The notes under the pieces were generated by a model. That model saw only the letters and a program-made list of their open reading frames with translations, was not told the origin of the DNA and ran no database searches. A stretch of 46,719 bases of DNA, filler included, from Jimgerdemannia flammicorona (taxonomy: Eukaryota): the NCBI GenBank assembly GCA_003990765.1. It is 2 parts of 2 records of this genome, joined end to end, with 100 filler letters (N's around TTAATTAATTAA, not from the genome) between each part and the next. Parts side by side here need not be neighbours in the genome. Positions count along the whole stretch, not along the records: positions 1 to 23,312 come from RBNJ01001120.1; 1 more part is not named here. One strand, 5' to 3'. A program made the translations under genes and the position numbers. The first letter of the stretch is position 1. Each line of letters opens with the position of its first letter. Below, piece after piece: positions 6,837-41,223 of the stretch.

Positions 6837-6930
6837 CTTGTCTGGGTATTGGGGCTCGGTTTATATGGTTGTTCGGGTAGTGGTGGTTGTTTATTGTTCA
6901 GCTTGAAAGTGAGGGATTCATCTTGAATCA

Positions 6931-6947
6931 CCAGCCAATGGACACCA
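6931..6947 (-). promoter_or_regulatory. Putative tRNA primer-binding site
   Basis: TGGTGTCCATTGGCTGG begins 3 nt after the LTR end (...TGTTACA act TGG). The cognate tRNA was not identified. Confidence 0.65.
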
Positions 6948-6950
6948 AGT

Positions 6951-7417
6951 TGTAACATAGCAGATGCTTACTCTTGAAAGTACATCAGATTTCTATATCT
7001 TGAAAACTTGACTGTTCTGACTCTCGCAGAGTCTCTTGAAATTACAGGGGAGAGTGGGTGAGTTTGAAGTGTATCTGCCTACAGACTTACTAGTTCCTTT
7101 GCTATCTCTTTGCTTTGAACTATTTTGATCTGAGGTTTATTCACTCGAAGATACTGGGTTATTTATACAAGTTTGCTAGCTATGAGATGGTTACTGGGTT
7201 ACGTGGTTAAGTTATGAGTCATTTAACACTTTGCAAAATGTTTTGCCAGTTGCAAAATGCTATACTATATCGGGAAGCTTGATCTTATACTTTGTGAAAT
7301 ATTTAGCAAATTGTGAAATTGAGGACTGTTAACTATGTGGCTATACTACTTTGGGACTGGGTGCAATCAAGTGTCTGTTCCCTATTTCCTTCTTCCAAAT
7401 CTGGCTATACTGTCACA
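6951..7417 (-). repeat. 5' LTR (467 bp) of the Gypsy gag fragment
   Basis: Ends TGTGACA...TGTTACA. TATAAAT (7161-7167) is followed by AATAAA (7136-7141). A PBS and gag follow. Confidence 0.85.
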
Positions 7418-7519
7418 ATATATAAAATATTGGTTTATTTTATTAATAAAAATTCTCTAATAAAAAAACTCTATAATTAATAGAATAATATTAATTTATA
7501 GATATATTATAATATCTAT

Positions 7520-9086
7520 TATAATAGTGACCCCAGAATAATGACATTAGTATAAGAGACAGTCTTTCCTTGCAAGCCACCAGATTGGAGTACAAGAAGA
7601 TCATATAGTATACAAGATGAGCAATGATAACTAACTGTGAGTCATTGTGACCACAATATGAGTATCTTAAGGAATATAAAAGAAGGATCAAAGAACCATA
7701 GTAGCAGTAACCAACAAGACCCACCAATTCCAAAATAGCTCAAAGACTTACTACAAACAAAATACCTGCTGCTCACCAAACCTCAAGGTCAAGGAATCAC
7801 CAAGATACCTCAGTTGAAGAAAGAATATTCCAAGACATCAGAAGAGCCATGAGAACCCATATAAGAAGGACTCCTAGTGTTAACCTGGGTATTAGTGACC
7901 CTTATCATTATATTCTCTACCACTGTGAAATGGAAACAAGGATCACTATTGCTACCAAATATCTCCAAATATGGCAGGAGTATGAAATAGAAAACTTTCT
8001 CTACTGGAAGTTCCCACAGGCCAGCCCCCAATAGTTATAAGATGCCACTCCCATGGATATATATGAAGCAAGAACAGCTAAGAAGATCCATCAGATCTTC
8101 AGGCATGTACCATGGTTGATCTCCAACTTGGAGTATGTTAGAGTCTCAGACTTCAGAGACCTGTCAGTCTGCCATATCAATACACTAGAAGCCAGGGTAG
8201 CTACAGAAGCCCAGTCCACTATTACTCTCAATAGTGATAAAGTAGAAGACTTCTGGTATCCCATCCTTCAGAACAACCCAGATCAATTCCTGCAAGAATT
8301 GATCTCAGTATTCCAAGGTCTAAGTATCTAGGTTAGACCTCTTCAAAACTCTACATTTGTTCTCTATTTTGTAAAAGAGAACCTCATAGATTGGAGAGCC
8401 TCTAATTTTCCCACTAAACATGATGATATCATTGGCAATGACATTATCCTACATGATATATGCAAAATGCACAACCTATGTAATGATGATAAGATGGATG
8501 AGATGTTCATAGATCTCATCTCCTTCAAAGACATCCTGACCTCTAATAAAGATAAAACTTTTATGGTTCTAAACATTCTGCTCTAAGTCTCTTGGTTACA
8601 CTGAATTATGCCAACACTCTTTTTCTGTATAACAGCTATTTCTCTACTGGCATTCTGATGTGACTTAGAATTATTCCAGTACCATTTTCCTATATTACTA
8701 AAATTATACTAGTATCCTGAACCTGTGCAACCATCTGTGCTGACCCTAAAACTTGACAGTTTTCTCTGTTCTAGCATTTTTATTTGGTTATTGGAATTTA
8801 TATTTAGCTTTATATCTTAGTAACTATTGAATTATATTTTGTATAAATACCCTTCTTATTTCCTTCAAAATAAAGTCAGTTCCTCTCAGTACAATATATA
8901 CAATTTCTTGCAAATAATCTAAGAGATAACAAGACAGTTTAAAGATAAGAAGTTTGAGGACTATAAGACCTTAGGAAGGCACTCTAATAAGGACTTACTT
9001 ACATATAACAAACTTGAGTTAGTCTAAGAGATATACTTTGAAGAGAATCTGATATATTTGAAGGACTCAGCAACTACTATATAATA
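7520..9086 (+). repeat. Solo LTR (~1.57 kb), decayed copy of the LTR at 20123-21662
   Basis: Colinear with the reverse complement of 20123-21662. Termini TATAATA...ATAATA are transition-mutated TGTAACA...GTGACA. A 4-bp TSD CTAT flanks it (7516-7519 and 9087-9090). Confidence 0.92.
7762..8586 (+). pseudogene. LTR(U3)-embedded ORF of unknown function, copy A (275 codons)
   Basis: Single frame from ATA (ATG in the sister copy) to TAA, with 3 internal stops (8032, 8038, 8329). Motif RTAKKIHQIFRHVPWLISNLEYV. Confidence 0.8.
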
Positions 9087-13870: not shown

Positions 13871-14060
13871 ATAAAGGAAGAATTGGGGTAGCTGGGGAAA
13901 TAGTGGTATTCTAGAGAGATAGAGAGAGGGGAGAGGGCCCCTCAGGAGATTGGATGAGAGGGGGGGGGGTCTGTATTGATATATGTAATATAGGTTGGTA
14001 ATTGGGTAATAAAATAGAAGTCCAAGTGACTATAAATAAAATAAAAAAATAAAAAAAAAA
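13871..14060 (+). mobile_element. 5'-truncated LINE 3' end (~190 bp) nested in A2
   Basis: Ends AAGTCCAAGTGACTATAAA plus an A-rich tail. TSD AGAGGTAATCTTGATT (13855-13870) / GGAGGTGGTCTTGATC (14061-14076) differs only by transitions. Confidence 0.85.
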
Positions 14061-14339
14061 GGAGGTGGTCTTGATCTGGTAGACTTCTCTAGAAGATTAT
14101 ATTACTTAAGAACTTAGTGATTGAAGTGTACTTTTAAGCTACATGGGAGTGGATGGGTGCCACTGCTATAGAAGGTTTGAGAGATGAGATTTTCTCTAAA
14201 GAGTTCTTTAGAAGATCTGCTGTTAATGATAGAACTGGGTAATAGCTGGTGCTTGTGGTTTTGGGGCTTTTGATAGGGAGTGAGAGATGATACTCATTAT
14301 ATTAGACTATATTGATATAGTGGTAAGAGGAAAGCTGAT

Positions 14340-14833
14340 GACTTTTGGTTAGTAGTTGGAGATAGATTGAATGTTGTGAGGAGGAAAGATGTTAAGAGGA
14401 GACACTGGGAGGATTTAAGAGATAGATTGATAGGTGGGTTTGAGAATGAGTGGCTTACTATTGTATGGGTTTTGATTATATAGATGGGATTGGCTAGATA
14501 CTGATTGTTTGTTTTTGAGGAAGAGTAGTAGTTGAGTTTGAGTGAGTGATTACTGAGATAGGAGGAATTGATGGGGAATATCTTGATAGGTTGATGGCTG
14601 AGATGGGGTTTACAAGAAGGTTGCTATCACCAACTAGTAGAGAAGATATATAGACAGAGTAGGGGGAGAGTTGTAGTAAGAAATGGTAAAGTAGTATTTA
14701 ATTATAAAGGTATAGGGAGAGAAGGGGTCCTTCTTAAGAGATTGAGTAGTAGGCTGAGATATTGTGGTTGATGGAACAGTAAATTATATATTGTTTTTAT
14801 AGAATCTGTTAATAATAAAAGAGTCTAAGTAAC

Positions 14834-14892
<59 letters not shown>
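14340..14892 (+). mobile_element. 5'-truncated LINE family A 3' end (~550 bp) nested in A2
   Basis: Encodes WEDLRDRLIGG and ends GAGTCTAAGTAACTAT plus poly(A) (14837-14892). Exact TSD GGAAAGCTGAT at 14329-14339 and 14893-14903. Confidence 0.9.
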
Positions 14893-19708: not shown

Positions 19709-20073
19709 TTACCACCTACCGATGTAGTTCAAAATGGTTCGCAGATAAGCTTTAATCAAATTGCCGGGAGCGTCGGATTTTTCCGACATTTTCATCATGA
19801 CCAATTTAATTTTCCATGTTTTTGTCGAGGGGGCTGGAGTTTGCATGTCGTCACCATTCGCACAATATGCTTTTGAGTTTTTTTCTATTAGGTGACGCAA
19901 CCGGATGGAAGGCCGTCGCCGAGGTGAACGTCGGGGTGCCGGTTGAGCACTGAATATCGACGGTATATTTGAACTATGTGAATTGCTGTTTGCAGCTGCG
20001 TGATGGGTTCTAGCTTCACATTCACTGTGTGTTTGCTCATCCATCCACCTCTTCAGACAATAAGATCGGCTCT
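19709..20073 (-). other. Possible orphan exon or fragment of a second host gene
   Basis: CpG-rich, non-repetitive 111-aa ORF preceded by a branch-point/acceptor-like CTCACCTGTCCTCCCTCAG. The sequence just upstream is an LTR. No recognisable domain. Confidence 0.25.
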
Positions 20074-20429
20074 GAGGGAGGACAGGTGAGCATTGTTAAT
20101 AGTTTGTCTTTAATATATATATTGTCACGTAGTGGTCGCTGAGTCCTTCAAATATGCCAGATTCTCTTCAAGGTGTATCTCTTAGATTAACTCAAGTTTG
20201 TTATAAGCAAGTTCTTATTGGAGTGCCTTCCCAAGGTCTTATAGTTTTCAAACTTCTTATCTTTAACTGTCTTGTTATCTCTTAGATTGCTTGCAAGGAA
20301 GTGTGTGTAAGTGAAACCAGAACTGACTTTATTTCAGAGGAAATAAGAGAGGCATTTATACAAAATATAATTCAATGGTTGCTAAGATATAAAGCTAAAT
20401 ATAAATTCCAATAACTAAAACTACTAAGT

Positions 20430-20557
20430 TCCAGGGTTGGCATTATTTAGTGTCACATCAAAATACCAGTGCTGGAATAATTTTGCATCATCTCAGAATG
20501 CCAGTGCTGGCATTATCCAGTATTACATAAGAATACCAGTGCTGGAATTATCCAGTG
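20430..20557 (-). promoter_or_regulatory. U3 tandem quasi-palindromic repeats (CCAGTGCTGG(A/C)AT), enhancer-like
   Basis: CCAGTGCTGG occurs three times (~20466, 20501, 20536) plus a variant at ~20431, between the LTR ORF stop and the TATA box. Confidence 0.55.
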
Positions 20558-20568
20558 TAACAAAGAAC

Positions 20569-21420
20569 TTAGAGCAGAAAGTTCAGGACCATGAGAGCTT
20601 TATCATCATCATTATTGAAGGAGATGAGGTCCGTGAATTTGTCATACAGGCTGTGCATCTCGCATACTTCATTGTCACATATTTCATATACTTCGTGTGC
20701 TTTGGGTATATCATGCAGAATGACATCATCGATGACATCATCATGTTCAGCTGTGGTGGGGAAATCAGAAACAAGGTCTGGAGCTCTCCAGTCTATGAGG
20801 TTTTCTTCCACAAAATAAGAAACAAACGTGGGGTCTTGTGGAGATCTAACCTAGATGCTTGGGCCTTGGAATACTGAGATTAATTCTTGCAGGAATTGAT
20901 CTGGGTTATTCTGAAGGATAGGGTGTCAGAAGTCTTCTACTTCTTCACTGTTGAGGGTGATAGTGGACCAGGCTTCTGTAGCCACCCTGGCTTCTAGTGC
21001 ATTGATATAGCAGAATGATAGGTCTCTGAAATCTGAGACTCTAACATACTCCAAGTTGGGGATCGACCATGGTGCATGCCTGAAGATCTGATGGATCTTC
21101 CTAGCTGTCCTTGTTTCGTGTATGTCCATGGAAGTAGTATCTTGTAGCTCTTGGGTGCTGGCCTGTGGGAACTCCTGGCAGAGGAGGTTTCCTATTTCAT
21201 ACTCCTGCCACATTTGGAGGCATTCAGTAGCAATGGTGATCCTTGTTTCCATTTCATGGCAATAGAGGATAAAGTGATAAGGGTCTGCAGTATCCAGGTT
21301 GACACTAGGAGTCCTTCTTGAGCAGGTCTTCATGGCTCTTCTGATATCTTGGAACATCCTTTCCTCGACCGAGATATCTTGGTGATTCCTTAACCTTGAG
21401 GTTTGGCAGGCAGCAGGCAT
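20569..21420 (-). pseudogene. LTR(U3)-embedded ORF of unknown function, copy B (284 codons, 2 internal stops)
   Basis: ORFs 20926-21420 and 20569-20811 share one frame. Stops are at 20926-20928 (TGA; TGG in copy A) and 20851-20853 (TAG). The start context is CAAAATG. Confidence 0.85.
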
Positions 21421-21662
21421 TTTGTTTGTGGTAAGTCTTTGAGCTATTTTGGAATTGGTGGTTCTTGTTGGTTGCTGCTACTGTAGTTCCTTGATTCTTC
21501 TTTTATATTCTTCAGGATGCTTGTACTGTGGTCACAATGACTCACAGTTGGTCATCATTGCTCATCTCATATACCATATAATCTTCTTGTACTCCAATCT
21601 GGTGGCTTGTAAAGAAAGGCTGTCTCCTGTGCTGATGTCATCATTCTGGGATCACTGTTACA

Positions 21663-21674
21663 TCTTCCTCCTAA
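21663..21674 (-). promoter_or_regulatory. Polypurine tract
   Basis: TTAGGAGGAAGA immediately precedes the TGTAACA start of the 3' LTR. Confidence 0.8.
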
Positions 21675-22012
21675 ATAAGGATCTTCCTGAGTATCCTTAT
21701 TTATTGGTCCAGTCCTGAAAAATTTGCTGATCCCATAACCTCTGGCAAGGGGTCAAAAACTGGTGTTTATGGACTGGCATCTTCCCTTTGTATTTTGGCA
21801 TAATGGTGAAGGGTTGCTCCCTTCATATAGAGCAAGGGCCTGATTCTGATCTTGACCAATCAGTTGATGGTTCAAACTTCTCTGACTGCGAAAGTCTTCA
21901 TGGATGAGTAGTTGCCAGTGCCGTATCTCTTAGAGAATGGTCCAGACAGATAGCCTGCTGGTCACAGAACATGCTGTTATAATTCATGGACTAGAACCTC
22001 ATGGGCAGTCAT

Positions 22013-23312
22013 TATGTTTTGCTTCTCTTGTATAGGTTCGTGGTACTTCTTGGGTCTGTTCCTATGTACTGTGGTGGGCAGTATGGTTCCTGAGATTTTT
22101 CTAAGCCAGAAGGTAGTTCTCTTGATATCTTGCACATAGAAGGGTCCTTCCCATTTGGGCTCCAGTTTTTGTGACTATGAGGCTTCTACCATATTTTGAT
22201 ACAGTAGAACCTTTTCTCCAATTCAGATGAGTTCTAGGGCCTTGTGATTCTTTTCCACATTCTTCCTTGTCAGTGCTTGTGACTTGGTGATGTAATCTTT
22301 AGCCTTCTTCCTGATTTGGTATAGTCTCTGGATTTCTGCATCAACCCATCTCCAAGTTAGGTCTAGATTTGTGGCTGAGGTTCCATTAGAATCTTCTTCT
22401 CTGAAGAGCAGCTCTCTTGGGGTAAAATGTGTGCTCTGTGATCATATGTCTCATAGGATGGAGAGGGCAGTTGGGAGATAGTTATCCCAATTCTCATATA
22501 TCTCTGAGATCTTTGCTAGGATATTCTTGAGGGTCTTGTTGGTTCTCTCTGTCTGTCCATTTTCTTGAGGGTGGTATGCAGTGGTCTTGATGTGCTGGAT
22601 CTTGTATTTCTGGTACATTATTTCGTGGAATCTATTGACAAATTCTATGCCGCAGTCTGTTGTAATTTGCTTTGGTGTCTTGTAGCAGCAGATGATTTCT
22701 TGGTATAGGAAATCAGCTATAGAGAGGGCATTGGCTTCTTGTAATACTCCTGCCTCTATCCATTTGATGAAGAGGTCTACAATAACTATAATGTAGCAGT
22801 TTCCTGATAGTGTTACTAGTAGTGGTCCAATGATATCCATTGTGATGTAGTAGAAGGGAATAGGCTCAATTCTTGATGATCCAGATATCTGGTCTTGCTG
22901 ATCTTGTTTCTGTTTTTGATACTTGTCACACTCTTTGACAAATTGGTGCAGGTCTTCTTCTATCTTGAGCCACCACATGGTTCTTCTTGCCTTGTTATAT
23001 GTGTTGGTTCCTCCTAAGTGTCCTTGCTCATGTACTTCCTTCATTACTTGATACTTCTTGTGTTCAGGTATTACTAGCTTTCCTCCTTTTCTGAGTGTAG
23101 TGTTGTCTAATTCAAACTGTTTCTAAGTCCAGTTGATGATGGTGATTGTCCAGGGTTCAAGGTGGTTAGGCATCTTCCACTGCTTAAGATAGCTGATTAA
23201 TCCATAGTATAGCTCCTTATTCATGTTGAATAGTCTTGATGGGGATGTTTTGGGGTGTCCTTGAGAGTGCATCGGCGTTGGTGTTGGTCTTTCCTGAGCG
23301 GTGCTTGACAGT
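22013..23312 (-). pseudogene. Ty3/Gypsy pol C-terminus (end of RNase H, integrase, GPY/F module)
   Basis: HRSGKTNTNADALSR (RNase H end), HEQGHLG...CDKYQ (HHCC), MDIIGPL / TDCGIEF / YHPQENGQTER (DDE core), KLEPKWEGPF. Cut by the assembly gap. Confidence 0.92.
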
Positions 23313-23412
23313 NNNNNNNNNNNNNNNNNNNNNNNNNNNNNNNNNNNNNNNNNNNNTTAATTAATTAANNNNNNNNNNNNNNNNNNNNNNNNNNNNNNNN
23401 NNNNNNNNNNNN
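23313..23412. other. Artificial contig spacer: 44 N + TTAATTAATTAA + 44 N
   Basis: Symmetric 100-bp gap carrying a six-frame stop linker. Confidence 0.97.
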
Positions 23413-23544: not shown

Positions 23545-26500
23545 AGCCCACCCCTTCTTTCCACCTCACCCCCTTCTCACCAAGTACAAGATGTTCCCGA
23601 CTTCGCTGAATAATATCTAACACCTTCTTCATGGCCCCCAACTAGTGCCTCTTCCCCTGATACCACCACCCTTGCACCGCTTCTAAGAGCAACCCCTTCC
23701 ACTGCTCCACCAATTCTCCAATTCCCATCCAGGGATCCCTCTCGAACACCCATTGCCAGTGCACCGCCATCAGTATCCAGATGCCGATAATTCGACCCAG
23801 GCCTCCCCAGATGTCCCCAATTTCTCCCACCAGGTGACGCTTGATCACCCGACAAGTGGGGCCCCCTGCCCGCTCACTCTCCTCCCCCCAATAACCTTCC
23901 AATGTCTGCCAAAATCCTTCAACCTCTGGACAGGCTGCCAGAACATGCTCCGGAGTTTGCACTACTCCCCCATCCAGCTCACAACACCACTCACATTCCC
24001 TTACACCTTCTTCTACCATCCACTCTGTCCTGTACCCCATCATGATGTTCCTCCACAGAAATTGCCACCATACCACCCAGAACTTGTGTGGGGCAATCTT
24101 GAGAAGCGAGGTCCCCCAGCCCCAAACCTGACCCCACTCCCATTCTTCTCCAAACCCAGCCTTCTGCCAACCAACTGGCCACCTCTCAAGCAGACCCATC
24201 TAGATCTACTCCATCACCCCAGACAAAGAGTATTCCACCAACAGGCGGCCACCAATACAAATCACACCAAATTGCCACCATCGTCAATCCAGGTCCTCCT
24301 CCTCTTTGCTAGGTTCTGGGCCCATGAGACCCATTGCCAGCCAAGCTTCTACAATACCCCACCAAAATCTCCTATAATGTAACCTGCTAACCCTTCCAAC
24401 CTGGAGCAAACCTTGCATGTTCTTCCAAGCCTCGCTCTGGGGGCAGAACTGAACTTCCCAATTGTCCATAGCCAGTTTGCTCCAACCCTCTCCTCCTAAT
24501 TCTGCCATTTGACAACCCCACCAGCCTCGAAGTACCTTTAGCCGCCTTCTGAAGTCCACCAACCCCAGACCACCATCTGCCTTTGCCATCACCATAATTT
24601 CCCAGCTAATCTGTAATCTCCTTCCCTGCCACAGCCATCCTTTGACCACCTTCTTCAGCTTTTGAACCACCCATCCTGGAAAGTCCAGGTGGTACCCCAA
24701 GTACCACAGCTTCGGAAACCAATATACATTCAAAACGACAATTCTCCCAACCAAGGAGAAGCCCCTCCCAGACCAGCCCACCAAGGCATTCTCCCACTTC
24801 TGTATCATTCCACACCACCAGTCTTTTGGCAGCACCGTCCCATAAACTAAGAACCAGATGCCCAGATATCGAACTGCTTCCCCAGGTCTAACCAATTGTC
24901 CAAAATGTCCATGCTCCCCCAATCCAGCTCCAAGCTCCATAGTCTCGCACTTGCCCCAGTTCAGCTTCGCTCCTGCCAGCATCTCATACTGTCCTACCCC
25001 TTCCTGTAAGCTTGCCACATCTTCCACACTGTCTAACCCTACTACCATATCATCTGCAAAGGCCCCCATCTTCCAGACCATATCCCCCATTTTCAATCCA
25101 GTAAGCCTCCCCTTCAACCACGCCAACAAGGGCTCCAAAGATAAAATGTAAAGCAGGGGTGAGAGAGGATCTCCCTGTGGCACACCTCGCCCTAAGTGGA
25201 ACTCTGGGCCACTCCACCCATTCATCAACACTGCAGCCCGGCAACCTCACACCAGACCCATCAGCTTTTGAGCCTCTCCCATATCAAACCCAGCCTTCCA
25301 TAGAACTGCCTCCAAGTAGTTCCACCGCACCCTGTTGTAAGCCTTCTCCTGGTCCAAAAACACCATCCTTCCATCTACTTGCCGGCTTCAACAACCTTCT
25401 AAAACATTTTGCACCCATGCTGTACTGTCTCTAATCTGCCTCTCCTTCACAAACCCTCGCTGTTCATCACCCACCAATCGGCCAATCCATTGTTGCATTC
25501 TCCCTGCCAGAATCTTGGAGACCAACTTCCTATCCACATTCAGTAACATGATGGGTCTCCAGTTCCGCCACACATGTCTGTCTCCTTTCTCCTTATATAG
25601 TAAAGAGACTAGCCCTAAGGAGCCATTACCAATCCAGCAGCCTTCCCCCAGTGTAAAGTTCGCCATTTCCACAAGCCATTCCCCAAGCTCAGTTTGAAAC
25701 TCCTTCCAGAACTCCCAAGGCAGTCCATCTTCCCCTGGCGATGAACCAGTCTGCGCTTTCCTCAGAACCTCTAACACTTCTTCAAGGGACACCCTACCCA
25801 TTACTGCCCCACCAATTGCCGGCTCTGCCACCACTGGCCAGCTGCCAACCAAATTGTTATTGTCCTCCAGTGCTGCCTCTCCCTCTACCAGCCCTCTATC
25901 ATCCTGCTATAGGGTGCACCATCGAGCAGAAATCTCCCCAAGCATGTCTGTGATATCGGTCACCTCAGTACCATCCTCCCGCAACACGGAAGCCCAGCTG
26001 TGCCTCACCCTCCTGGCCTTCAAGATGCTGGACAAGTATTTGGTGGGTTGCTCTCCTTCTTCCAACTGCTTGGCTCGCAATCTTGCTAGCAACCCATCCA
26101 CCACCCTATCTTCTGCAGCCTTCAAATCCGACCGCAACTCTGCCACCTCCTTGATCAACAGGGAGCGCCATTCCCCTGAGGGGTTCTCTCCCTCTAAAAG
26201 TCTCAACCGCCAGTGCAGCCCCTGCTCTACTCTCCTCTCTCTGTCCTTCTGCTCCCTTCCCGCTACCTCTCCTACATCATGCCAGTATGCACCTGCCAGA
26301 TGTTTAAATTTCCCCCACCACTGTGCTATCGACTGGCCACTATTCTTCCACCATGCCACTTCCTGTCTTGCAATTTTAACAAACTGGTCCCACTCCACCT
26401 GTCTCTTGAGTAGTACCACATTCAGTTGCCATCTGCCTCCACCACCACTGGCCGCCTGGAATCTCCCACACACCTCTACACCCCAGTGATCTGACCAGTG

Positions 26501-27178
26501 ACACCACCATACCTTAGTTGAATCCAAAACATTACCCCAGCATTCTGCCACCAGAACCCAGTCAATCCTTATACCAACCAAATCCTCACCAACCGGATGC
26601 CACCTAGTAAATGGCCCTGACTTCTCACCTTGACATTATTGTACTCCATCAACCAATTCCATTTCCTTCTCAACTTGCAGCCATCATGAGAGCCCTGTAG
26701 AAACCACCATGCTGACTCCACCATCAGACCTATCTAATGTCCTGTCATGAACCATGTTGAAGTCTCCTCCCAAAATGTCCAGCCCAATCTCCTCTCGGCC
26801 TTCCCAATTCAGCCAACCTTCCACCCATTGGTTTTGCTCTCTGCCAACCGCTGGCAGATATACTGAGCCAACTACAAGCCCATTGCCTGCTCCTCCTTTC
26901 AGTCTCCCCCAGACCAATCGATCACCATACCTCTCGACCTCCATCAACTCTCCTCTCCCCAGGCCAACCAGAACGCCCACCTGCTCATTCCACCCTATGC
27001 TACCATACCATTCCTTGCTCCACTCCTCATAATCTTGCTCCCCATAGGCCCGAACGTCCCGCAGAAATATCAAATCATACCTCCTGTTCTTCAGCCACTG
27101 AAACAAACGCCTTCGCTTCACTCCATCACGCAAACCATTGATATTGAGAGATAATATATGTAGACTGTTCATCATCAT
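23545..27178 (-). pseudogene. LINE B1 ORF2 (APE-RT-Cys/His motif), several stops
   Basis: SLNINGLRD, GGDFN, RIDW, WSDH (APE); SSPGEDG, NWRPIMLLNVDRK, EQRGF, PQGDPLSP, FADD, YLG (RT); CEWC...EHVLAAC. Confidence 0.93.
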
Positions 27179-27190
27179 GAATGTAAATGT

Positions 27191-29035
27191 TTAAATTTCC
27201 ACCTGATTCACCGCCACCTTCTCAGCCCTACTGCAAATAATAGCCTTCCGTTCCTCACAGATACCTCTCCAGATGCATGCTCCATTCACCCCATTGCAAA
27301 AGACTGCCACTCGCTCAGATGCCACCTTCCTGATTTCAGCCATACAGTTCTCATCAATCTCATATTCTTCATCATCCAAAAGGGCCACCACTATTGCTGT
27401 CACCAACTTCAGCCCCTGCAATGCCACGTTGAGAAACCCTTCCCAGGCCTCCTGCGATCTATTAAACACATCCACTTCCTTGATATCCTCCTCCGCGAGT
27501 TCCTCGAGCACTGCCTGATACCAGTCATCTGCTGTCATCACCATGGGCCCTGGGGTGGCAGGCCTTGGAGTCCTGCTCAGCTCCTGCAGCATCTCTCAAT
27601 CTGTCGACACATCAGAAGCCACATCTACCAGATCGTCCTCCTCAGTGCCCTTCTCCAGCTGAACCACTTCGCCTGCCTCTGGGCATTCCCAATGCACATT
27701 CACCACTCCCGCCATGCGAACATCCTCCAACTGGGTCTCTGGTACCATCTTGACAACCTCCTCAAAGCCCCCAGTAGTTGCCTCCTCCTTATCTGCCCAC
27801 TTCCCTGTCACTGGTGCATGAGTAGAATCCGCCACACCCCCTAGTTGTGCAAAGGACACTTCAGCCATCTCCACCTCTTCCATTTGATTTTTGGCCATCT
27901 CCACCTTTTCCTCCTCCTCCCTTTTCAAGCCCTGGAGGACTGTCTGCAGATGCTCCCAGTTTGCCCTTCACCACCTCTTCCTCTTCCCATTGGTCGGAAT
28001 CCAGATCCAATCCTTGGCAAACTCCTCCCATTTCCTCTTCCGCAATTCCTTCACAGCCTCTCTCTCCTCTAGGGCAACTAGCAATTCCTCCTCCTCCTGT
28101 TCCGAGCCCTTCCTTCTCCACACTTTGCACTCCTGCCCTCCAATGTGAACTACTTCTGACCAGTCTCTCTCTTGCCCCATGGCCTCCTTGCCTTCCAGCT
28201 TCACCATCACCTCGCAGTTGCCATTCCTCAACTTGGTCCCCTCCCAAGACATAAACCCGAAGTCAACCTTCTCACCAAATGCCCCTAGTGCCTCTGCCAC
28301 CATTTCTTTGGTCTCCTGTCTCCCCAGTATCAGCAGCCCTTCAATCACCAGTTGCACTGCCTGCAGGTCCCACCTCAGGCACCTCGCCATGCCAACCTTG
28401 ATGCTCTTGATGACCAGCCCTTTCTCCAAGGCCTTCACCATCTCCTCCTCCTTGACGAATCCTATCTCAACTGCCTCAGCTGATGGGATGAACTTCAGCA
28501 ACTCCACCCCTGCAATCTCCTCTCCAACTAGCCACAAGACCTCCCTCGCCGACATCCCCAGCCTCAAAAAATTCACTGATATGGCCCACGTCGACACCGA
28601 TTTGTGGAAGAAGGGACGCACCACCAGTTCACTAGATCCAGCTGCCATCATTGCCTTCTTCTTGTTCTCTGATACTCCAGCAGTCACCCCAGCCACCGGC
28701 CCAGCCCCAGGAATACCAGTCCCAGCCACACTACTTCCGGACCCCTGGCCCCTAGCAGGCATCTGACCAGTCACCTGACCCATCACCTGGCCGGTCACCT
28801 GACTCCTCCCCCTGTCAACACTACCCCCCCCCTGCCCTACCCCCATAGGCCTAGTAGCCACCCTCCTGCCCCCCATCACTGTGTGCCAACTCATAATGCC
28901 AGCCTGCCTCCCCTGACCACCTACTCCTCCTGCCCCTACACCTGCTCCAACTGTCACCGCGAAACTCTTGGGGAGACCCAGACCAGGCCTCCTTCTCTCT
29001 AAACGCTCAGAGCTTGATGAACCCTGGGTCGCTAT
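27191..29035 (-). pseudogene. LINE B1 ORF1, start mutated to ATA, broken
   Basis: ATA at 29035 is in frame with ORF 27968-28957. It continues in pieces 27596-27928 and 27191-27592 and ends 12 nt before ORF2. Confidence 0.85.
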
Positions 29036-33358: not shown

Positions 33359-34609
33359 TCAGACCCCAGAACCAACTTAGATATCTATATAGAGGTTTGA
33401 TTTATCTACTCTTACAGGACTTTTTAATCTAATCTCTTGGAATTAAGTAACCCCAAGTCACTCTGTACCACAACTTCATCAGACTGAACAGTTTGTAGGA
33501 GAATTTACCCCTATAGACCCACTACCAGCAGTCAACACAATGATAGATATATATCAAAATTCAGACCCTAACTGTCCAACTAGCCATACTAGCAGAAATA
33601 GTAGAACAAATTACTAAACAAAACAAACTAACCAAGATCTTGAAAATCTCTATTTTTAGTAGAAAGAATAGTAATATCGAAATATTCATTGATGCAGTAG
33701 ATACAGGATACTGAGCAAATCAATGGAATAATAACTGAGTATCTACAGAAATACTTACCAATAACAGAGATAATACTCTTCAATAGTTATTTGCTATATT
33801 AGTAGTATAAGTAGAAACAGTAGCAATATTCTTCACTGAAATAGTAGCTAAGTTCTAGCATACTCTAGAGAAACACCCAGTAACCTAGGAAGGCCACCCT
33901 TAAGTTAATAGACAAGTAGCTGGCTAAGCCAGATCAGGTTAGAATAACTACATAATAGGTTCAGGACTTAAGACTCTACTACTGATCAAATTTAGAAATA
34001 TAGCCTATATATAAGAAACTTAGAATAAACTAGCCCAGATGAAGTTCTACAAGAATAGTAAGAAGGACCTAGAAATCTTTACTATCAAAATAAATATCTA
34101 CCTCAAAACCATGAGACTTATTTACTAGGAAAAAAATTTGACCATCAATAGTATCAAGGTCAACCATCTCTTTATAGTCCTATCAGACTGACTCACCTAG
34201 AAGATTAAAGAACAAGGTCTCTCCCAAGGATATCTCCACTACTTATAGTACTTTACCTAGATACAAAGTTGAGTATATGAAATTCTTACTGTATAGGTCC
34301 TATAAAATTCAGAATATAAGAAGAATAACTAAGATAGAAAAAGTTCTCCCAGAAAAAATGACCAAAGAAATGACTAGAGAAATCAACAAAATCTCAAAGG
34401 ATCCAGGCCCCTCAATGAGGATGAAAAGAAGCAGCTTTATAAAAAAAAATTATGCTTATTTGTAAGAAAGCAGAACATATCTCCTTCAGATGCTCTGAAA
34501 AGAGAAACAGATCAGATGAATCCAATAACCAGAACATTACTATTATTAGAAAAGGACTATAAAAAAAGAATTCTAAGAATATTATCAAAGTATAGAAAAT
34601 ATGATATAT

Positions 34610-35003
34610 ATAAGATTACTATCTCTACTAAGACCCACTTTACTGATATAGAATATAATCTCTACAGTAGCCAGAATCTCACTATTCCACTAAGTACTAA
34701 TGCTATAGTGTATACTGAAATTATAATACAAGCTCCCAAAGGAACATATATATACTTTGCTAAACAAAGCAGTCTGGTCAAAGAATTCAATATTGGGCTA
34801 AGAGGAGGAGTGGTTGACTAAGGTTTTATTAGTAAAATCTATGTTATTTTGTGAAATTTTGGAGATACTACATTTGAAGTCAAAGTAGGCCAAAGGATTG
34901 CTCAGACAATTATTGAAGAAATTCATCAAGATCTCACTATTGAAGAAGTTCCCAAGCTCTCTCAGACAGACTGTAGCAAGAAAGAGTTTAGATCAACCAA
35001 TAA
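34610..35003 (+). pseudogene. dut: Trimeric dUTPase domain within the Gypsy polyprotein
   Basis: All five motifs in one frame, in decayed form: TDIEYNLYS (AGYDL), KQSSL (RSSL), GGVVD*GF (GVVDxxY/F), GQRIAQ, TDCSKKEFRST (RGxxGFGST). Confidence 0.9.
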
Positions 35004-37880
35004 ACTCCCTAGTCAAAAGATTACCACTATGAAGGAAGATGATGAAAACTGATACAAGAGAATGGTAGATAGTTATGCACTATATAGACAATACTTTTAT
35101 TCTATTCAAATATACTATATGAAACATATTGATAAATGCCATACATGTCTCTCCAAGGATTTCAAAATCTAATCCAAAAGATACTAAGCCCAATAGACTG
35201 AGAAATCCAAACCAGACCACCCTTCTTGTAAAGAATGGAGAGAGACTAACTTCAAGCAGACTGACAGCAATTGGGATAATGATATAAAGAACTCAACATC
35301 ATTAAGAAAGAGGACAGTTGCATCAAGTTTACAGGCTAAGTTTATAGATAGAATGTCAATATCTTACTAGATAGTAATACTACTGAAAACTATATTAGCA
35401 CTAAGACTACCAAGAGGATTAAAGCCTAAAGCTGACCAGCTACTGGGAAAAGATATATTACCTTTGGTAATAGTAAGACTGCTCCTTTGACCAAAATCTG
35501 TAAAGACTTATTACTTAAGATTGAAAAATACTAAGAGAAGTTGGATTTCAGTATCATAGATCTTTCAGAATAAGATATTATCTTAAGAAAGGCCTGGTTG
35601 ACCTAGTATAATTCAGATATCAATTGGAGGACACCTAACTCATAAAGGTAGAAAGATCACTCTGATATCTCAAAATGCAATTCAGATGAAGAAACTCTCT
35701 TATAAAAAAGAAAACACATACTTCATCTGTATAGTACAAAAAGTCACTGAAACTCTAAGTAACTCAGTTCTATCAGAAGCTCAAGAACTATTTGAGAAAT
35801 TCTAAGATACATATATATTGATAATATACCTATAGTGAAACAGTAGAACTATACTACACCTACCTCAGACAGGTACTGACTCTTCTGTGAGAATACCAGC
35901 TCTATGCTAAGATGAGTAAGTACAAGTTCTATTAAGATCAGATTAAGTATCTAGGATATATCATCTCTACTAAAGATATCAATATGGACCTTCAAAAGAT
36001 ATCAGCTCTCTAAAATATTCCCATCTCCACTATCTTCAAGTTACTCTAGTACTTTCTGAATATTGTAGATTACTATCAAAGGTTTATTCAAAGATACTCT
36101 GCTATTACAGTCCCACTGATCAGTCTGACCTACAAAGGAGTAAACATTAAAACTGAATAGACCTCTAAGTATATTCAGATCATGGACCATCTCAAGAGAC
36201 TTCTTACTAAGACCCCTGTGCTAATTGTATCTGATGCTACTAGGCTATTTACTCTGACCACAGATGTCTCTGATATTGTCATTGGGGTAGTACTTAGTCA
36301 GAAAGATTGTCTAGTGGTCTATCTCTCCCAAAAGCTTAAGCCAGCTGAGATCTAATATACTATCTATGAGAAAAAACTTCTGGCCATTATTACTATACTC
36401 TAGGAGTAGTGCTATTTCCTCTTAGAACAACCATTCATGACCTATACTAATCACTATGCCTTATAGTATATTTATATATAGCTTATACTGATCTATAGAT
36501 AAGTCCATTGGATGGAAATCATTACTAACTTTAATATGGAAATCAAGTATATTTCAGACAAAACCAACTATATGGCTGATGATTTCTCCAGATATATAAA
36601 AGATAAACTTGTCTTCATAGTTAAGATAATTCAAGAATAGCTACCAACAAGATAGCTCTCTGGTGAAATTTCTTCAATTCTGTTAAGATCCTGAGGCTGA
36701 GGTCTCAGAATCTATAAGACAAATATTCAAAAGATTTACTTACTATAATGGACTTATCTATAGGGACTATGACCAAGTAGTTATACTCAATAATGATACT
36801 CTGTGACTCAAGATAATGTAGGAACTCTATAACACTCCTACAGTAAAATATTTTGGTTTTGAAAAGACCTACAATCTCCTCTCAAGAGAGTTCTACTGAC
36901 TAAAAATGACCAAGGACATCAAAGATTTCATGGTCTCATGTGAGATATATCAGAAATTCAAAAGTAATAATAAGCTATCAGTAGGACTTCTGCACCCTCT
37001 GCTCATCCCTAGCTATAACTGAGATCAGATTGCAATAGACTTCATTGTTCAGCTTCTTAAGACCAAGGCAGAATGAGATATCATTATAGTATTCATAGAC
37101 TACCTAAGCAGATAAGCCCATTTTGCACCCACTAAGACCACTGCTATAGCTTCTGAGATTGCTGAGATTTTTCTCAACCAAGTCTTCAGACTATATAATA
37201 TATCTAGTACCATCATATCTAACCATGATACCAAGTTCACAAGCAACTTCTAGAAGGCATTTTTCTCCCTCTATGATACCAAACTGAAATTCTCTACTGT
37301 CTACTACTCCTAGACTAATAGTCAGACTGAATGAACTAATAGAAATCTCAAGCAGATGCTCAGTATTTTCTATTGTTACAAGTAAAATAATTGAGACAAG
37401 TATCTGGCCTATACCAGGTTTACCTATAATAATAGTAAGTAAATCTCTATGAAGAAAACTCAGAACCCTAAGTACTGCTGCAAAATCAGTAGTCTCTACA
37501 GCCCAAATTTGGCTGAGACTATTTTTGATCTTATATAAATGATAAGAGATATCCTTATAGAAGTTCAAGACTATCAGACCAAGTATACCAACTTGAAGTA
37601 AAGGAAAGTCTCTTATAATATTACTAAATGGTTATGCTTAGAACAGACCATCTCTACCCAAATACTTTAGTTCAGCAACTATCTAAGAAACTCTATACCA
37701 GAAGAATTGGACTATATAAATTGTAAAAAAAGTCAGTCAAGTCAACTATAAGCTGCAACTCCTCTATAATATTTGAGTTTATCTAGTATTCTATATCAGT
37801 CAACTGGTAGACTATTTTGTGAATCTATTCTCTAAGCATACAGTTCCACCACTATCTCTAATTAGGATCAGTAATTATAA

Positions 37881-38390: not shown

Positions 38391-38903
38391 TAAAGTCAAA
38401 AGAAGAAAATTTCAAACTAGTGAAATATAGTAATTTTCATATAATCAACATATACTCTACTTCTAGCAATAGATCATATGTTTCCCTAGAAATGTAATTG
38501 AAATAAAGTCATATCAGACAGGTGAATAAGTATAATACCCAGGTCAGAAACACACTACAACTCTCATTCCTCTCTCCTCTCTCCAAAGAAAAAACAATAC
38601 AAAAATATCTACTATCTACTATCAAATAGCTCACCATAGTCAACTCCTCCTAAGCCAAGTTGACCATCTTTTTAGACACATCCAGATCACTATCCAAGGA
38701 AGAAACTACTGCTCTGAGACCCCTAATCTTACCAGCCAGGACCTAGGATACTATGTTCTCAACTGCTAAGAAGTTATAGACAGAGCTTACCTTGCTATCA
38801 GCTACTTAGAAATCTAATATAAATATGAAATTAGATACCAACTTCTCTAGTAGATCAAAGACCAAACTGCTAACCAGATCATAGACTGGGTCTACTTAGA
38901 CAG

Positions 38904-41223
38904 TGTGGCATTCGTTATGTATAATGAACTTCGACTATATGGCTCAATGTGTGCCACTGGTGAAGCACGCGATGGATAACTGAAGGCATTGATAATGTTC
39001 GCAGGTCAATGGTCATGTGACAGGTTGTTCGATTTGTGTGGTAATTGATAATAGTGGGACTTCGATTGTTCAATGATGGTGGGCTCAGGACATTGATGGC
39101 TCAATTGTTTAGTAGAAAAGGGCGGCGAATAACTTGGTGGCAAACTTGAATTTATGCAGCGACCTTGAATTTATGCGGCAACAGTCTTGACGGTCTTGCT
39201 CTTTATGTGGTCAATTAAAGCGGTCCATGGCACAGTAGGTTGGGGAAAAAACGGAGGTTGACGGCTCGCTCGTCCATCTTGACTTGTTAACTTGGAAGGT
39301 TCCTGGTAGTCATTTGAGTCTTTGGCAGCAGTCTTGTATCCTTTGGCTGGGTATCCTTGGGTTTCCGGGTCTTGAATCTCGAATGGCAGTCGAATGCATG
39401 GTCCGAATGGCAGTCTGAATGCGTGGCAGTTGTAGTCTTGAATCCTTGGCTGGGTCTCAGGTCTCGAATAGCAGTTGAATATACAGTCCAAATGGTGTGG
39501 TCAGGTAACGTTTTCTTTTTGTGGCAAGAGAAAATTCTTTAACTCAAACTTCCAAGCAATCTGTTGCTCTAGGTTGTTATCTTGTTCTCAGAATTTATCC
39601 AGTCTCTTGGAGGCAGTGGTTTCTTTATAATCCTTTTTACTTTTAAACACAAGCTGACTGAGGTTTATTCACTCTAAGAATATGGGTTATTTATACAAGC
39701 TTGCTAGCTATGGGCATGGCTAAGGTATACTACATTGTGGCGAACATTCGCTATGCTATTGGCTTGCACAATGCAAGATACAGGCTATTGTTTACTATGG
39801 ATTAGGTTGTAGGAGATAGCAACGCTGAATTCAGATGAGCAGACAGGAATGCTGATTGTTGCCAGAAATGGTTGTGGAGGGTGGCAACGCTGAATTCGGA
39901 CCTGCTGACAATATGCTGAAAATGGTGGTACTGGGTAGCAATGCTGGAAATGGTTGTGCTGGGTAGCAATGCTGGATTCGGACTTACTGACTTGCTGACA
40001 TGAAGGCTGCACAATTCTCATGGCTGATGGGTGGTGCTTCTAGAGGAAATAGTACCCTTTGTCCACGGCAGACAAATCTTGCTGGGTTAAGATTTCTTCT
40101 TCATCATACCTCTCCTCAAAAGGGGGAAGTACCAGCCAAGAGGTGAGGGGGTAGAAAAGTGGCCAGTCATCTTCAACAACATTCTCCAACCCTTAATGCG
40201 GACAGAGGACTGGTAGACTCTCTGTTGCTCCTCTTCTTCTTCTGAAAGCTCGTCAGTTTCAGTGTCAGAGGGGGTTTCTTCAGGGGCAGGGTCTTGGAGT
40301 TCTTGGGCTTCCTCTTCAAAGACAGGGACCTCTTGGGCTTCTTCTTGATTCGGTTCCCAAATGATGAGATGTGAATTGTGGCTGACAGAGTGGTGGGTGG
40401 TTGGGGTAGCTCTAACAGGTACTTCTATGGTAATGGGTGGTCCTTCAAATATCTCCATAAGACTCATTAGGTGACCTTGATGGTTGTCTTAGAGTGGGGT
40501 GGTGTGGAAACCTGGCTGAGTAGGTTCGGTTTGTTGGCTTCCTACAGTGACCCGGTTGCTACCAGTAGAGTTGGCTACTTCTAATTCTATCCAGTCTGCA
40601 TCTTCAGTTGAGAGATGGGCAAGACTGCCAGCCATTACTCCTTGCAAGTGTACTATGGCCCAGAGGATGTGGCAGAATATCTGATGAATGTGGAGAGCTC
40701 TCTTGATCAGCTGGCTGGTGGTTATCAATTTGGTAATGAGGTCTTCCCGGTCGTCTTCTTGAGTCTCATTGTGAAGGTGGTGTCTGATTTTGTAATCATA
40801 CCAGAGGGTCATTCGTTCAGTAGTGTCTTTGAGCTGTTGGGTCATTATATACTGGTAGTTGATGAAGTATCCAAGGTTCTTGGTGTAGAAGTTCAAGTGT
40901 TCAGAAGTATCTAGGCACCAGATGGCCTTCTTGATAGCTTCAAAGATCAGGGTCTTTGGGCCAGGCAAAGGGGTAGAGCGGCGGGAGGTCTGGTTGGATT
41001 GGCGAATAGGAGGCATTGTGTGGTGGGTACTTGGTTCTTTGGTACTGATTCCTGAGGCAGAGTATGGTTCCTTAAATAACATGGTCTTCATTTTGGCTCG
41101 GATCATCTTGTCTTCTTTTGGGATGATCACCTAATGGGTCAGGCTGTCTATTTGATTGTCATGCCATTATGTTATCTAATTTTAGCAGTCACCGGTACTC
41201 TGTTGTCAATTGTGTACGTCACA
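38904..41223 (-). repeat. Long (2320 bp) LTR of a further Gypsy-type family, without internal region
   Basis: Ends TGTGACG...TGCCACA with a sharp composition change at both ends. The TATAAAT (39689-39695) / AATAAA (39664-39669) core closely matches 7131-7190. It carries the U3 ORF homologue. No TSD (ACAG / CTAT). Confidence 0.75.
40040..41016 (-). pseudogene. LTR(U3)-embedded ORF, divergent homologue C
   Basis: MPPIRQSNQTSR start at 41016. One in-frame TAA at 40489-40491 aligns to Q of PILQNN. A probable frameshift near 40200 leads to ...VVEDDWP...DKGYYFL* (40040). Motif RALHIHQIFCHILWAIVHLQGV. Confidence 0.8.

Follow-up and report, generated by a model that had tools for sequence, protein, structure and literature searches.

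The long terminal repeats (LTRs) of Ty3/Gypsy elements are regarded as control regions devoid of coding sequence, and annotation pipelines mask them. Three LTR blocks in a stretch of 46,719 nucleotides of Jimgerdemannia flammicorona DNA, filler included (hereafter the window), nevertheless contain one reading frame apiece, about 275-310 codons long and on the sense strand. Are these frames chance or relic open stretches, or do they belong to a gene, and in the latter case from which signals would it be expressed and what could its product do?

LTR blocks and the elements that carry them

The three blocks are A (7520-9086, plus strand), B (20123-21662, minus strand) and C (38904-41223, minus strand). 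BLASTN aligned A (7522-9097) with B (21660-20112) at 77.7% identity over 1618 columns, and MAFFT yielded 82.8% identity over 1490 aligned bases; the homology stops at the TG..CA termini. Since A and B are opposite in orientation, they are not the LTR pair of a single element.

B is the 3' LTR of a minus-strand Ty3/Gypsy remnant. It runs from TGTAACAG to ACGTGACA, with termini of the TG...CA type (TGTAACAG...GTGACA), and a polypurine tract, AGGAGGAAGA (21663..21672, minus strand, identified directly in the sequence), abuts the 5' side of its start TGTAACAG. The integrase of the element (21980..23269, minus strand) was detected by tblastn with 85% identity to P0011 over 430 residues. On the same strand and upstream of B, Pfam recognised the Integrase_H2C2 (5.5e-15) and rve (2.2e-9) domains at 22454-23122. 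The upstream H2C2 and rve integrase, the TG...CA ends and the adjoining polypurine tract are all those of a Ty3/Gypsy (Metaviridae) element. The nearest named relatives of this integrase are metazoan Ty3-type Gag-Pol polyproteins, with about 33% identity.

Block A is probably a solo LTR of the B family, heavily decayed by C>T changes. Its flanks consist of unrelated AT-rich DNA with CTAT on both sides, a possible 4-bp duplication that is a weak sign in AT-rich sequence. Block C belongs to a divergent family (TGTGACG...GCCACA), with about 240 nt followed by the frame, tandem repeats and a TATA/AATAAA core at 39664-39695. We count it as an LTR on its TG..CA ends and on the architecture common to A and B; it has neither a partner LTR nor a polypurine tract nor a target duplication in the window. 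No element with both LTRs is present in the window, so that none of the gene copies could be observed within a 5' LTR.

Coding potential of the frames

The frame in A (7762..8586, plus strand) has lost its start codon and contains 3 internal stops, and its translation matches residues 1-271 of P0002 with 62% identity (tblastn, E 2e-107). The frame in B (20569..21420, minus strand) is 283 codons long and interrupted by two in-frame stops, at 20926-20928 and at 20851-20853. Its identity to P0001 reaches 80.5% over 247 residues, and that to the intact P0002 is 65%. The frame in C (40087..41016, minus strand), 309 codons long, is interrupted by a single in-frame stop (40489-40491); it shares 77% identity with P0004 over 200 residues and matches P0006, P0007 and P0010 with E-values of 2e-24 to 7e-22.

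B and C have no BLASTN match as DNA, whereas their proteins align by BLASTP with 46.2 bits and an E-value of 2e-11 (27% identity over 142 residues). Between A and B, the MAFFT alignment contains 6 indels inside the frame (12, 6, 3, 6, 18 and 12 nt), all of them multiples of three, against 1 of the 9 located downstream of it. Over the core of the protein, dN/dS was 0.28 for B versus A and 0.12 for B versus the metagenomic locus L001, the latter being a rough value because dS (2.1) is near saturation. For this same B-L001 pair, pN and pS were 0.22 and 0.705, and the differences were distributed as 63, 42 and 98 over the first, second and third codon positions. The stop-to-stop frames of L001 and L002, of 343 and 308 codons respectively, were reached in none of 2000 shuffles (maxima of 193 and 227 codons).

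Judged from sequence comparison, the LTR frame is thus a real protein-coding gene family that has been under past purifying selection inside Ty3/Gypsy-type LTRs. The initial annotation had described sense frames of about 275-325 codons in three LTRs, a TATA box downstream of the frame, frame-keeping indels between A and B, and proteins of B and C that align where their DNA does not, and had concluded that the gene was selected. All of this is borne out by the lengths, alignments, dN/dS values well below 1 and intact relatives reported here; the downstream TATA box is present and conserved, and every B/C peptide match that had been quoted occurs in the translations.

A fourth copy, a gene-less LTR and neighbouring remnants

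A fourth family member, D (38605..38901, plus strand), consists of the decayed N-terminal 99 codons and ends where C begins. By tblastn it matches residues 4-102 of P0010 with 46% identity (E 1e-18) and P0007 with 48% identity (E 2e-19). The B frame has no direct match to D at E ≤ 10, because D is short and decayed. None of the 4 copies in the window (A, B, C and D) is intact.

D sits downstream of a plus-strand integrase that is part of a Ty3/Gypsy remnant (34378..37466, plus strand; Pfam and tblastn) comprising a dUTPase (34378-35049), an RT/RNase H (35831-36637) and the integrase itself (36699-37466), all on the plus strand. The latter is 28% identical to the integrase of B's element over 173 residues. 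C was considered as the 3' LTR of this left-hand element and rejected, as its frame lies on the opposite strand and no polypurine tract precedes it; the truncated D (38605-38901, plus strand) fits that role instead. As for C, no partner LTR was found for D in the window.

A probable short LTR of about 475 bp, E (about 6943..7418, minus strand), lacks the gene and retains the same TATA/AATAAA core, with 88% identity to C over a 65-nt core. Remnants of open frames follow it. No second copy of E was found in the window, and its frames had no Pfam support. We also discarded a minus-strand frame of 146 aa (37194-37631), which is hydrophobic and antisense to the decayed plus-strand integrase and was not treated as a gene. 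Exchange of the gene between lineages, suggested by a gene better conserved than the integrase, was dropped as well, the B frame having no direct match on D. The window further contains a LINE reverse transcriptase whose nearest named relatives are from a lycophyte and an oomycete (29%), and no Rfam family or tRNA (ARAGORN) was detected in it.

Relatives in public data

Intact relatives of 271 to 342 aa were found in public metagenome data: P0002 (271 aa), P0006 (342 aa), L001 (323 aa) and L002 (291 aa). The family is small there, with 3 + 6 protein matches and 2 loci. Among 1.84 billion protein representatives, only 6 proteins were retrieved at E ≤ 0.001, and C used as query against the same set reached other lineages at 1e-13, 2.5e-12 and 4e-4. 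The metagenome scan recovered two short loci only (1345 and 1535 bp) and the viral contig scan no relative. The sole match of the prokaryote genome scan (L003) covers 15 residues and is spurious. No homologue of any length was found outside this small family among the 1.84 billion representatives, and its members include neither fusions with cellular proteins nor entries annotated as such. The likeness to an abundant hypothetical Glomeromycotina family, put forward in the initial annotation, is not supported by these counts, and 0 of the 3 relatives with a recorded source carries an organism name. Masking of LTRs may account for the near-absence of the gene family from protein databases.

High copy numbers of the LTR were seen in one soil metagenome run and among the runs of two coded organisms, A and B (4 runs, two of which are only guessed to be RNA). 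Coverage extends to the parts of the LTR located upstream of the upstream TATA box described below, and no transcript start, end or splice was discernible in the contigs from these runs. The gaps in coverage (20619-20735, and the internal region in X15) are evidence of nothing.

Features of the predicted protein

The models predicted with AlphaFold2 are all-helical and weak (pLDDT of 46.1 for P0002; pLDDT of 58.9 and pTM of 0.53 for P0007), the alignment of 10 sequences being too shallow for a better prediction of the core domain. The C-terminal tails have net charges of -15 to -25, and 6 of the 7 tail-bearing members contain a hydrophobic-LNF motif, the exception being P0004 of the C lineage. 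The helical N-terminal domain and acidic tail that had been proposed from the sequence were thereby recovered. The likeness to DUF3102/DUF1016 was not: none of the 10 family members matches any Pfam model at E ≤ 10, which also leaves all 10 outside the Sag and Nef families, and the pieces in the window gave no real Pfam match at E ≤ 1. A sequence profile search of the PDB returned nothing at E ≤ 10. Structural comparisons were equally negative, with a best feature score of 0.83 and a best TM of 0.33 in the ESM Atlas, both under the tool's own bar, a best E-value of 0.61 for Foldseek against the PDB, and a best Z of 4.6 in the wide VIA-align search, where no chain reached Z ≥ 5.

Because no family or fold was matched and the models are weak, any function proposed for the product is based on composition and short motifs only. 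As a guess, the product may regulate the element in trans, likeliest as an activator of LTR transcription and next as an anti-silencing factor. The acidic transcriptional activator serves here as a working analogy only, drawn from composition and motifs.

Promoter-like and poly(A) motifs

A conserved TATAAAAG precedes the start codon by 65-87 nt. In B it occupies 21500..21507 (minus strand), 87 nt ahead of the start codon. Together with GACTTACCACAAACAA just before the ATG, this upstream TATA box is maintained across A, B, L001 and L002, among which protein identity is only 43-62%. C displays TATTTAAG 62 nt upstream of its start codon.

The frame is followed by a conserved TGTATAAATA-N-AATAAA-TCAG core. 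In B, a tandem repeat (35 nt x 3.1; 20462..20567, minus strand) separates the stop codon from the downstream TATA box in an enhancer-like position, and C contains an analogous array (28 nt x 2.3; 39913-39976), both detected with Tandem Repeats Finder. The core of B (20320..20363, minus strand) consists of TGTATAAAT, a spacing of 26-27 nt, AATAAA (20328-20333) and an initiator-like GTCAGTTC. The same arrangement, TGTATAAAT-N-AATAAA with a constant spacing of 26-27 nt and then TCAG(T/A), was observed in A, B, C, L001 and the gene-less E. L002 has no recognisable TATA box ahead of its AATAAT-type signal, which weakens the downstream TATA box as a universal promoter of genomic RNA. TGTA and AATAAA could alternatively represent a bipartite poly(A) signal rather than a promoter. 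As sequence motifs, the upstream TATAAAAG and the downstream core are new here.

The conservation of TATAAAAG before the start codon suggests that the gene is equipped with a promoter of its own in each LTR, including solo ones. The initial annotation had tentatively placed expression in the 3' LTR; with this predicted promoter, dependence on that LTR, or on splicing, would no longer be needed.

Interpretation of the LTR gene

We somewhat favour, as the best explanation of these observations, a self-contained gene located inside the U3 of at least three Ty3/Gypsy-type lineages, with its own promoter, the poly(A) signal of the LTR and possibly a regulatory role in trans. As the conserved motifs suggest, transcription would start from a TATA box that belongs to the gene and precedes its start codon by 62-87 nt, and would end at the poly(A) signal of the LTR. 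A message of about 1.15 kb could thus be produced from every LTR, whether 5', 3' or solo. The TATA-(26-27 nt)-AATAAA-initiator core would be the promoter of genomic RNA, which would start just after AATAAA and therefore carry the signal only at its 3' end. The product is speculatively described as a helical core of about 210 aa followed by a fast-evolving, strongly acidic tail that contains short hydrophobic motifs (F-x-D-L-I-x-F, hydrophobic-L-N-F).

The signals could also be distributed in another manner, which we find rather unlikely as a whole: the upstream TATA box would be the sole promoter, the frame would lie in R and U3 would be reduced to about 180 nt. The genomic RNA would then begin with the frame as its first cistron and carry it again at the 3' end; TGTATAAAT...AATAAA would act as a two-part poly(A) signal at which most transcripts of the 5' LTR stop, yielding the mRNA, while read-through would yield the genomic RNA. 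UGUA-type and AAUAAA elements are a common layout of poly(A) signals, which agrees with such an arrangement, as do the status of the upstream TATA box as the best-conserved promoter-like motif, its presence in L002 with no TATA box before the poly(A)-like signal, and the lack of any ATG between it and the start codon of B. However, an R of about 1.15 kb would make gag translation pass an upstream frame of 270-340 codons, and the 5' LTR would contain an active poly(A) signal at a long distance from the cap. The constant 26-27 nt between TATA and AATAAA followed by TCAG(T/A) rather fits a TATA-plus-initiator promoter, the tandem repeats lie just upstream of the core in the fashion of an enhancer, and the gene-less E retains that core. 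E also has a second bearing: an LTR with the same core and no gene speaks for a passenger, a captured host gene or a small separate mobile cassette that entered an ancestral short LTR, is replicated with it and is selected for itself or for the host with no benefit to the retrotransposon. Promoter-like signals belonging to the gene, and its occurrence beside two integrases only 28% identical, point in the same direction. We nonetheless regard such a capture as improbable, given that no homologue of any length was found outside the family among the proteins searched, that fusions to cellular proteins and cellular protein names are both absent from its members, that position and orientation in the LTR are alike in A, B and C despite protein identities down to 27%, and that purifying selection persisted while the LTRs diversified. 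As for chance or relic open frames without function, with a B/C likeness due to DNA ancestry only, the disruption of all 4 window copies speaks for them, as does the fact that their expression is so far a prediction. They are already very unlikely in view of the frame lengths of L001 and L002 relative to the shuffles, the excess of third-position differences and the low dN/dS, the 6 frame-keeping indels and a protein similarity that outlasts the alignability of the DNA.

The preferred reading of a self-contained U3 gene can be extended, more doubtfully. Each LTR may be an autonomous Pol II gene whose diffusible product, an LTR activator or a silencing blocker, would serve the whole family in trans as a 'public good'. 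If so, each insertion would deposit two copies and each solo LTR would keep one, the gene being encoded in the only portion that LTR-LTR recombination leaves behind. Ty3/Gypsy lineages with integrases of only about 28% identity would also have kept the gene or handed it on from one to another.

A conserved and selected gene that lies wholly in the LTR and has promoter-like signals would matter in several respects. Solo LTRs could stay active sources of protein long after the loss of their element, and the system would offer a tractable case for the self-regulation of retrotransposons or for the countering of host silencing. It also provides a concrete orphan protein to test, with its core of about 210 aa and its acidic tail.

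Comparison with known systems

Searches of the full-text literature, most subscription journals being outside their reach, returned no account of a protein-coding gene located within a Ty3/Gypsy LTR. The additional ORFs known from plant LTR retrotransposons (Ogre ORF1, ORF0 of Retrosat2, RIRE3 and RIRE8, Retand, and the antisense ORFs of Tat) are lineage-specific orphans of Ty3/Gypsy elements with long LTRs, have no assigned function and evolve faster than pol (PMC3485330, PMC7264820). The LTR gene resembles them as a lineage-specific orphan of long-LTR Ty3/Gypsy elements. They are set apart by their described internal location, as in the passages on Retrosat2, whose ORF0 is placed in the internal region (PMC3485330), whereas the LTR gene lies inside the LTR itself. 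Phrases for a location in, within or inside the LTR have 0 occurrences in the review PMC7264820. Cassandra TRIMs, with 5S rRNA gene copies in their LTRs, are similar in that each LTR houses an independent transcription unit together with a promoter, as proposed for the LTR gene; theirs is a fragment of a Pol III RNA gene, and the elements are non-autonomous, whereas the LTR gene is a protein gene of predicted Pol II type in LTRs next to integrase-bearing elements.

Among retroviruses, nef of HIV/SIV and tas/bet of spumaviruses are 3' accessory genes overlapping U3, and foamy viruses use an internal promoter. They are accessory regulators encoded at the 3' end and extending into U3, a position that is proposed and a role that is a guess for the LTR gene, and the internal promoter of foamy viruses is the nearest analogue of its putative dedicated second promoter. 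They begin in the internal region and only overlap U3, whereas the LTR gene is wholly inside the LTR and is consequently kept by solo LTRs; Pfam, PDB and fold searches revealed no sequence or fold similarity between them. With a gene of this kind in Ty3/Gypsy LTRs, U3 accessory genes would not be confined to complex vertebrate retroviruses. The sag gene of MMTV encodes a superantigen and is situated in the U3 of a betaretrovirus LTR, upstream of the LTR core promoter. Like the LTR gene, it is a complete sense-strand frame of about 300 codons in the LTR upstream of the core promoter, which is putative for the LTR gene, and as a result of this position both would be duplicated in the two LTRs. 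The two are unrelated in sequence (no Pfam match). Sag is a type II membrane glycoprotein, while the product of the LTR gene is predicted to be helical and acidic, with no hydrophobic anchor noticed by eye. MMTV is a vertebrate retrovirus, whereas the carriers of the LTR gene are Ty3/Gypsy-type elements without env, in which, unlike in MMTV, a conserved TATA box stands directly upstream of the gene.

LTR blocks carrying a long reading frame

The window is almost wholly made of decayed retroelements in eukaryotic DNA, and remnants represent at least three LTR retrotransposons. Three LTR blocks, A (7520-9086, plus strand), B (20123-21662, minus strand) and C (38904-41223, minus strand), each contain one long frame on the LTR sense strand, starting about 240 nt into the LTR. 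The frame lies at 7762-8586 (plus strand) in A, with its start codon lost and 3 internal stops, at 20569-21420 (minus strand) in B, with 2 internal stops, and at 40087-41016 (minus strand) in C, with 1 internal stop. The initial annotation had described these frames and quoted peptides matching between the proteins; all the quoted matches were found in the sequence, and the observation was extended by a fourth, truncated copy, D.

Block B is the 3' LTR of its element: the minus strand carries, in order, an integrase (23269-21980; Integrase_H2C2 5.5e-15 and rve 2.2e-9 with Pfam, 85% identity to its relative P0011 with tblastn), the polypurine tract AGGAGGAAGA (21663-21672) and, directly after the tract, the LTR, which starts with TGTAACAG and ends with GTGACA at 20123. 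A (7522-9097) and B (21660-20112) were aligned by BLASTN within the window at 77.7% identity over 1618 columns; being opposite in orientation, they are not two ends of one element. A is isolated in unrelated, AT-rich DNA with CTAT flanking both sides, and is thus probably a solo LTR. C has TG..CA ends, and no partner LTR, polypurine tract or target duplication was found for it in the window.

The closest relatives of the B integrase (P0011-P0016), located on short metagenome contigs, are separate frames of 410-435 aa and not segments of Gag-Pol polyproteins; this may reflect either an artefact of gene calling or an integrase encoded on its own. Just upstream of the B integrase, two 44-N runs (23313-23356 and 23369-23412), read as a gap or masked stretch, fall in the filler joining the two records. 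The 3' flank of LTR B (19800-20033) reaches a word depth of 570-1470 in runs X12 and X15; it is thus high-copy and belongs to a separate repeat family.

Evidence for a selected gene

Five independent lines of sequence evidence (protein match between B and C, intact relatives, indels, dN/dS and invariant columns) make it well supported, and very probable, that the LTR frame is a coding gene under selection. The B and C proteins, already aligned end to end in the initial annotation, match significantly over 142 residues (27% identity, 46.2 bits, E 2e-11), and BLASTN gave no match between their DNA. A word-indexed search with B matched 3 proteins, among them the full-length P0002 (271 aa). With C as the query, an exhaustive phmmer search of 1.84 billion representatives matched 6 proteins at E <= 0.001, including P0006 (342 aa, 1e-13), P0007 (2.5e-12) and P0001 of the A/B lineage (4e-4); so small a number lends no support to the abundant Glomeromycotina family suggested in the initial annotation. 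Uninterrupted frames were found in two metagenome loci, L001 (323 aa) and L002 (291 aa), whose stop-to-stop spans of 343 and 308 codons were reached by none of 2000 shuffles per locus (maxima 193 and 227).

In the global alignment of A and B (1490 aligned bases, 82.8% identity), the six indels that fall inside the frame all have lengths divisible by three (12, 6, 3, 6, 18 and 12), in line with the frame-keeping indels noted in the initial annotation, against only one of nine downstream of the frame. Over the first ~210 codons, the Nei-Gojobori method gave for B and L001 a pN of 0.22, a pS of 0.705 and a dN/dS of 0.12, with 63/42/98 differences per codon position, and for B and A a dN/dS of 0.28, although both are decaying pseudogenes; the core ratios are thus well below 1, with dS saturated in deeper pairs. 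The C-terminal tail is hard to align and evolves under much weaker constraint (dN/dS 0.3 to above 1). Finally, 13 columns of the family alignment are invariant (for instance W71, Y74, H110, Q111 and H115 in P0002 numbering), and hold across lineages with identity down to 27-28%.

Putative promoter and polyadenylation signals

Upstream of the frame, TATAAAAG precedes the ATG by 87 nt in A and B, 65 nt in L001 and 80 nt in L002, and is followed by GACTTACCACAAACAA, conserved immediately 5' of the start codon. In C the counterpart of this upstream TATA is TATTTAAG, 62 nt before the ATG. These motifs are kept although the proteins share only 43-62% identity. Downstream of the frame, a conserved core comprises TGTATAAAT, an AATAAA whose distance from the TATA stays at 26-27 nt, and a TCAG(T/A) 3-8 nt further on; it was found in A, B, C, L001 and the short LTR-like block E. 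Tandem repeats also lie downstream of the frame in B (20462-20567, 35 nt x 3.1) and C (39913-39976, 28 nt x 2.3).

Two readings of this arrangement were weighed. On balance we favour a frame located in U3, as the initial annotation had it, with its own promoter, following established promoter geometry: the TCAG, about 36 nt from the TATA, fits an initiator, and genomic RNA starting just past the AATAAA would have this signal at its 3' end and not at its 5' end. Alternatively, R would be long and contain the frame, the upstream TATA being the sole promoter and the downstream block a two-part poly(A) signal. L002 speaks for such a long R, with an upstream TATA yet none before its AATAAT-like signal, but we regard it as rather unlikely. 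With the frame within U3, the gene would have its own TATA box and a poly(A) signal common with the LTR, and each LTR, solo LTRs included, would form a complete transcription unit of ~1.15 kb.

In L002, GTCAGGCGGAAC occurs in similar context at 171-182, upstream of the gene, and at 1480-1491, near the contig end, ~1310 nt apart; the pair could reflect a repeat within one LTR or two LTR copies side by side.

Further copies and a block without the gene

Copy D (38605-38901, plus strand) was detected by tblastn with family queries, and corresponds to residues 4-102 of P0010 (46% identity, E 1e-18) and of P0007 (48% identity, E 2e-19). A Ty3/Gypsy remnant lies upstream on the same strand, identified with Pfam and tblastn: RT/RNase H (35831-36637), integrase (36699-37466) and, upstream of RT, a dUTPase domain in two pieces (34378-35049; Pfam 1.9e-6 and 2.8e-4). 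This integrase shares only 28% identity over 173 residues with that of B. D ends exactly where C starts, so C abuts or interrupted the 3' region of this plus-strand element; the LTR start of D could not be located in its decayed sequence. At least three protein lineages carry the gene (A/B/L001, L002/P0006/P0007/D and C/P0004), which accompanies two deeply divergent integrases, in sense orientation every time.

Block E (~6943-7418, minus strand) has the LTR-like ends TGTGACAG...TGTTACA, a 65-nt core that is 88% identical to that of C, and no LTR-gene frame; it is probably a gene-less relative of the gene-bearing LTRs. The initial annotation would have counted against the gene a full-length element whose 5' LTR lacks the frame; E is not the 5' LTR of an element with a gene-bearing 3' LTR, and so is no such case. 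The open-frame remnants after E (5850-6870, minus strand) were not recognised by Pfam or tblastn; they include a degenerate zinc-knuckle-like stretch.

The encoded protein

The protein, of ~270-340 aa, matched no known family: none of ten members matched Pfam at E <= 10, leaving the suggested likeness to DUF3102/DUF1016 unsupported, the PDB yielded no sequence at the same threshold (E <= 10), and no ESM Atlas match rose above noise level. AlphaFold2 models were weak (pLDDT 46.1 for P0002; 58.9 with pTM 0.53 for P0007); both agree on a predicted all-helical core of about seven helices, for which neither Foldseek (best E 0.61) nor VIA-align (best Z 4.6) detected a similar fold. The tail has a net charge of -15 to -25 (D+E 21-37%) and bears F-x-D-L-I-x-F-like motifs, and a hydrophobic-L-N-F motif lies near the C-terminus in 6 of the 7 members with a tail, being absent from P0004 of the C lineage. 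Acidic activators combine a structured domain with an acidic tail bearing hydrophobic motifs; with this likeness as its sole basis, a transactivator role would be a guess.

Retroelement setting and decay

L1-like LINEs (Exo_endo_phos and RVT_1) occupy ~389-5845 and 23882-33400 on the minus strand (Pfam, tblastn and BLASTN), the second region being a 5.2-kb tandem duplication (23965-28122 and 29202-33358, 90.6% identity). A decayed plus-strand LINE ends in A56 at 14837-14892, and a T49 run at 45443-45491 marks the poly(A) tail of a further LINE on the minus strand; 1-614 matches 45493-46112 at 67% identity. Strand asymmetry is very strong in the LINEs (1-5845, 9589-14892 and 23882-33400): minus-strand copies (~52% GC) have a plus-strand GC skew of ~-0.44, so their sense strand is rich in G and poor in C, and an older plus-strand copy falls to 36% GC with a CpG observed/expected of 0.0.

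A and B differ by 218 transitions and 39 transversions, with C>T rates per available site, sorted by 3' neighbour, of 0.62 (CpG), 0.36 (CpA), 0.18 (CpC) and 0.13 (CpT), and CpG observed/expected is 0.0-0.5 in every element. The C>T pattern fits methylation-linked or RIP-like decay. Such context-dependent decay and the low CpG ratio are suggestive of a fungal host. Parts of the window recur in metagenome runs from soil and rhizosphere, as well as in runs of two coded organisms, and the LTR is high-copy in contigs from four of those runs.

Comparison with known systems

Accessory genes in U3 are already known. MMTV sag is located there and is the closest analogue by position; foamy virus tas/bet, a 3'-end accessory unit with its own promoter, is the closest in logic. 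The additional ORFs of plant Ty3/Gypsy elements sit in the internal region in the part of the literature covered (PMC3485330), whereas the present gene is inside the LTR. The phrases 'in the LTR' and 'within the LTR' are absent from the covered text of a review of plant additional ORFs (PMC7264820), and that of a study of bdelloid rotifers (PMC5408684) has a single, unrelated occurrence of LTR-location phrases. More generally, no description of a protein gene in a Ty3/Gypsy LTR was found in the main text of the articles searched, largely open-access ones. What appears new here is a putative U3 accessory gene in env-less Ty3/Gypsy elements, contained entirely in the LTR, together with dedicated promoter-like signals.
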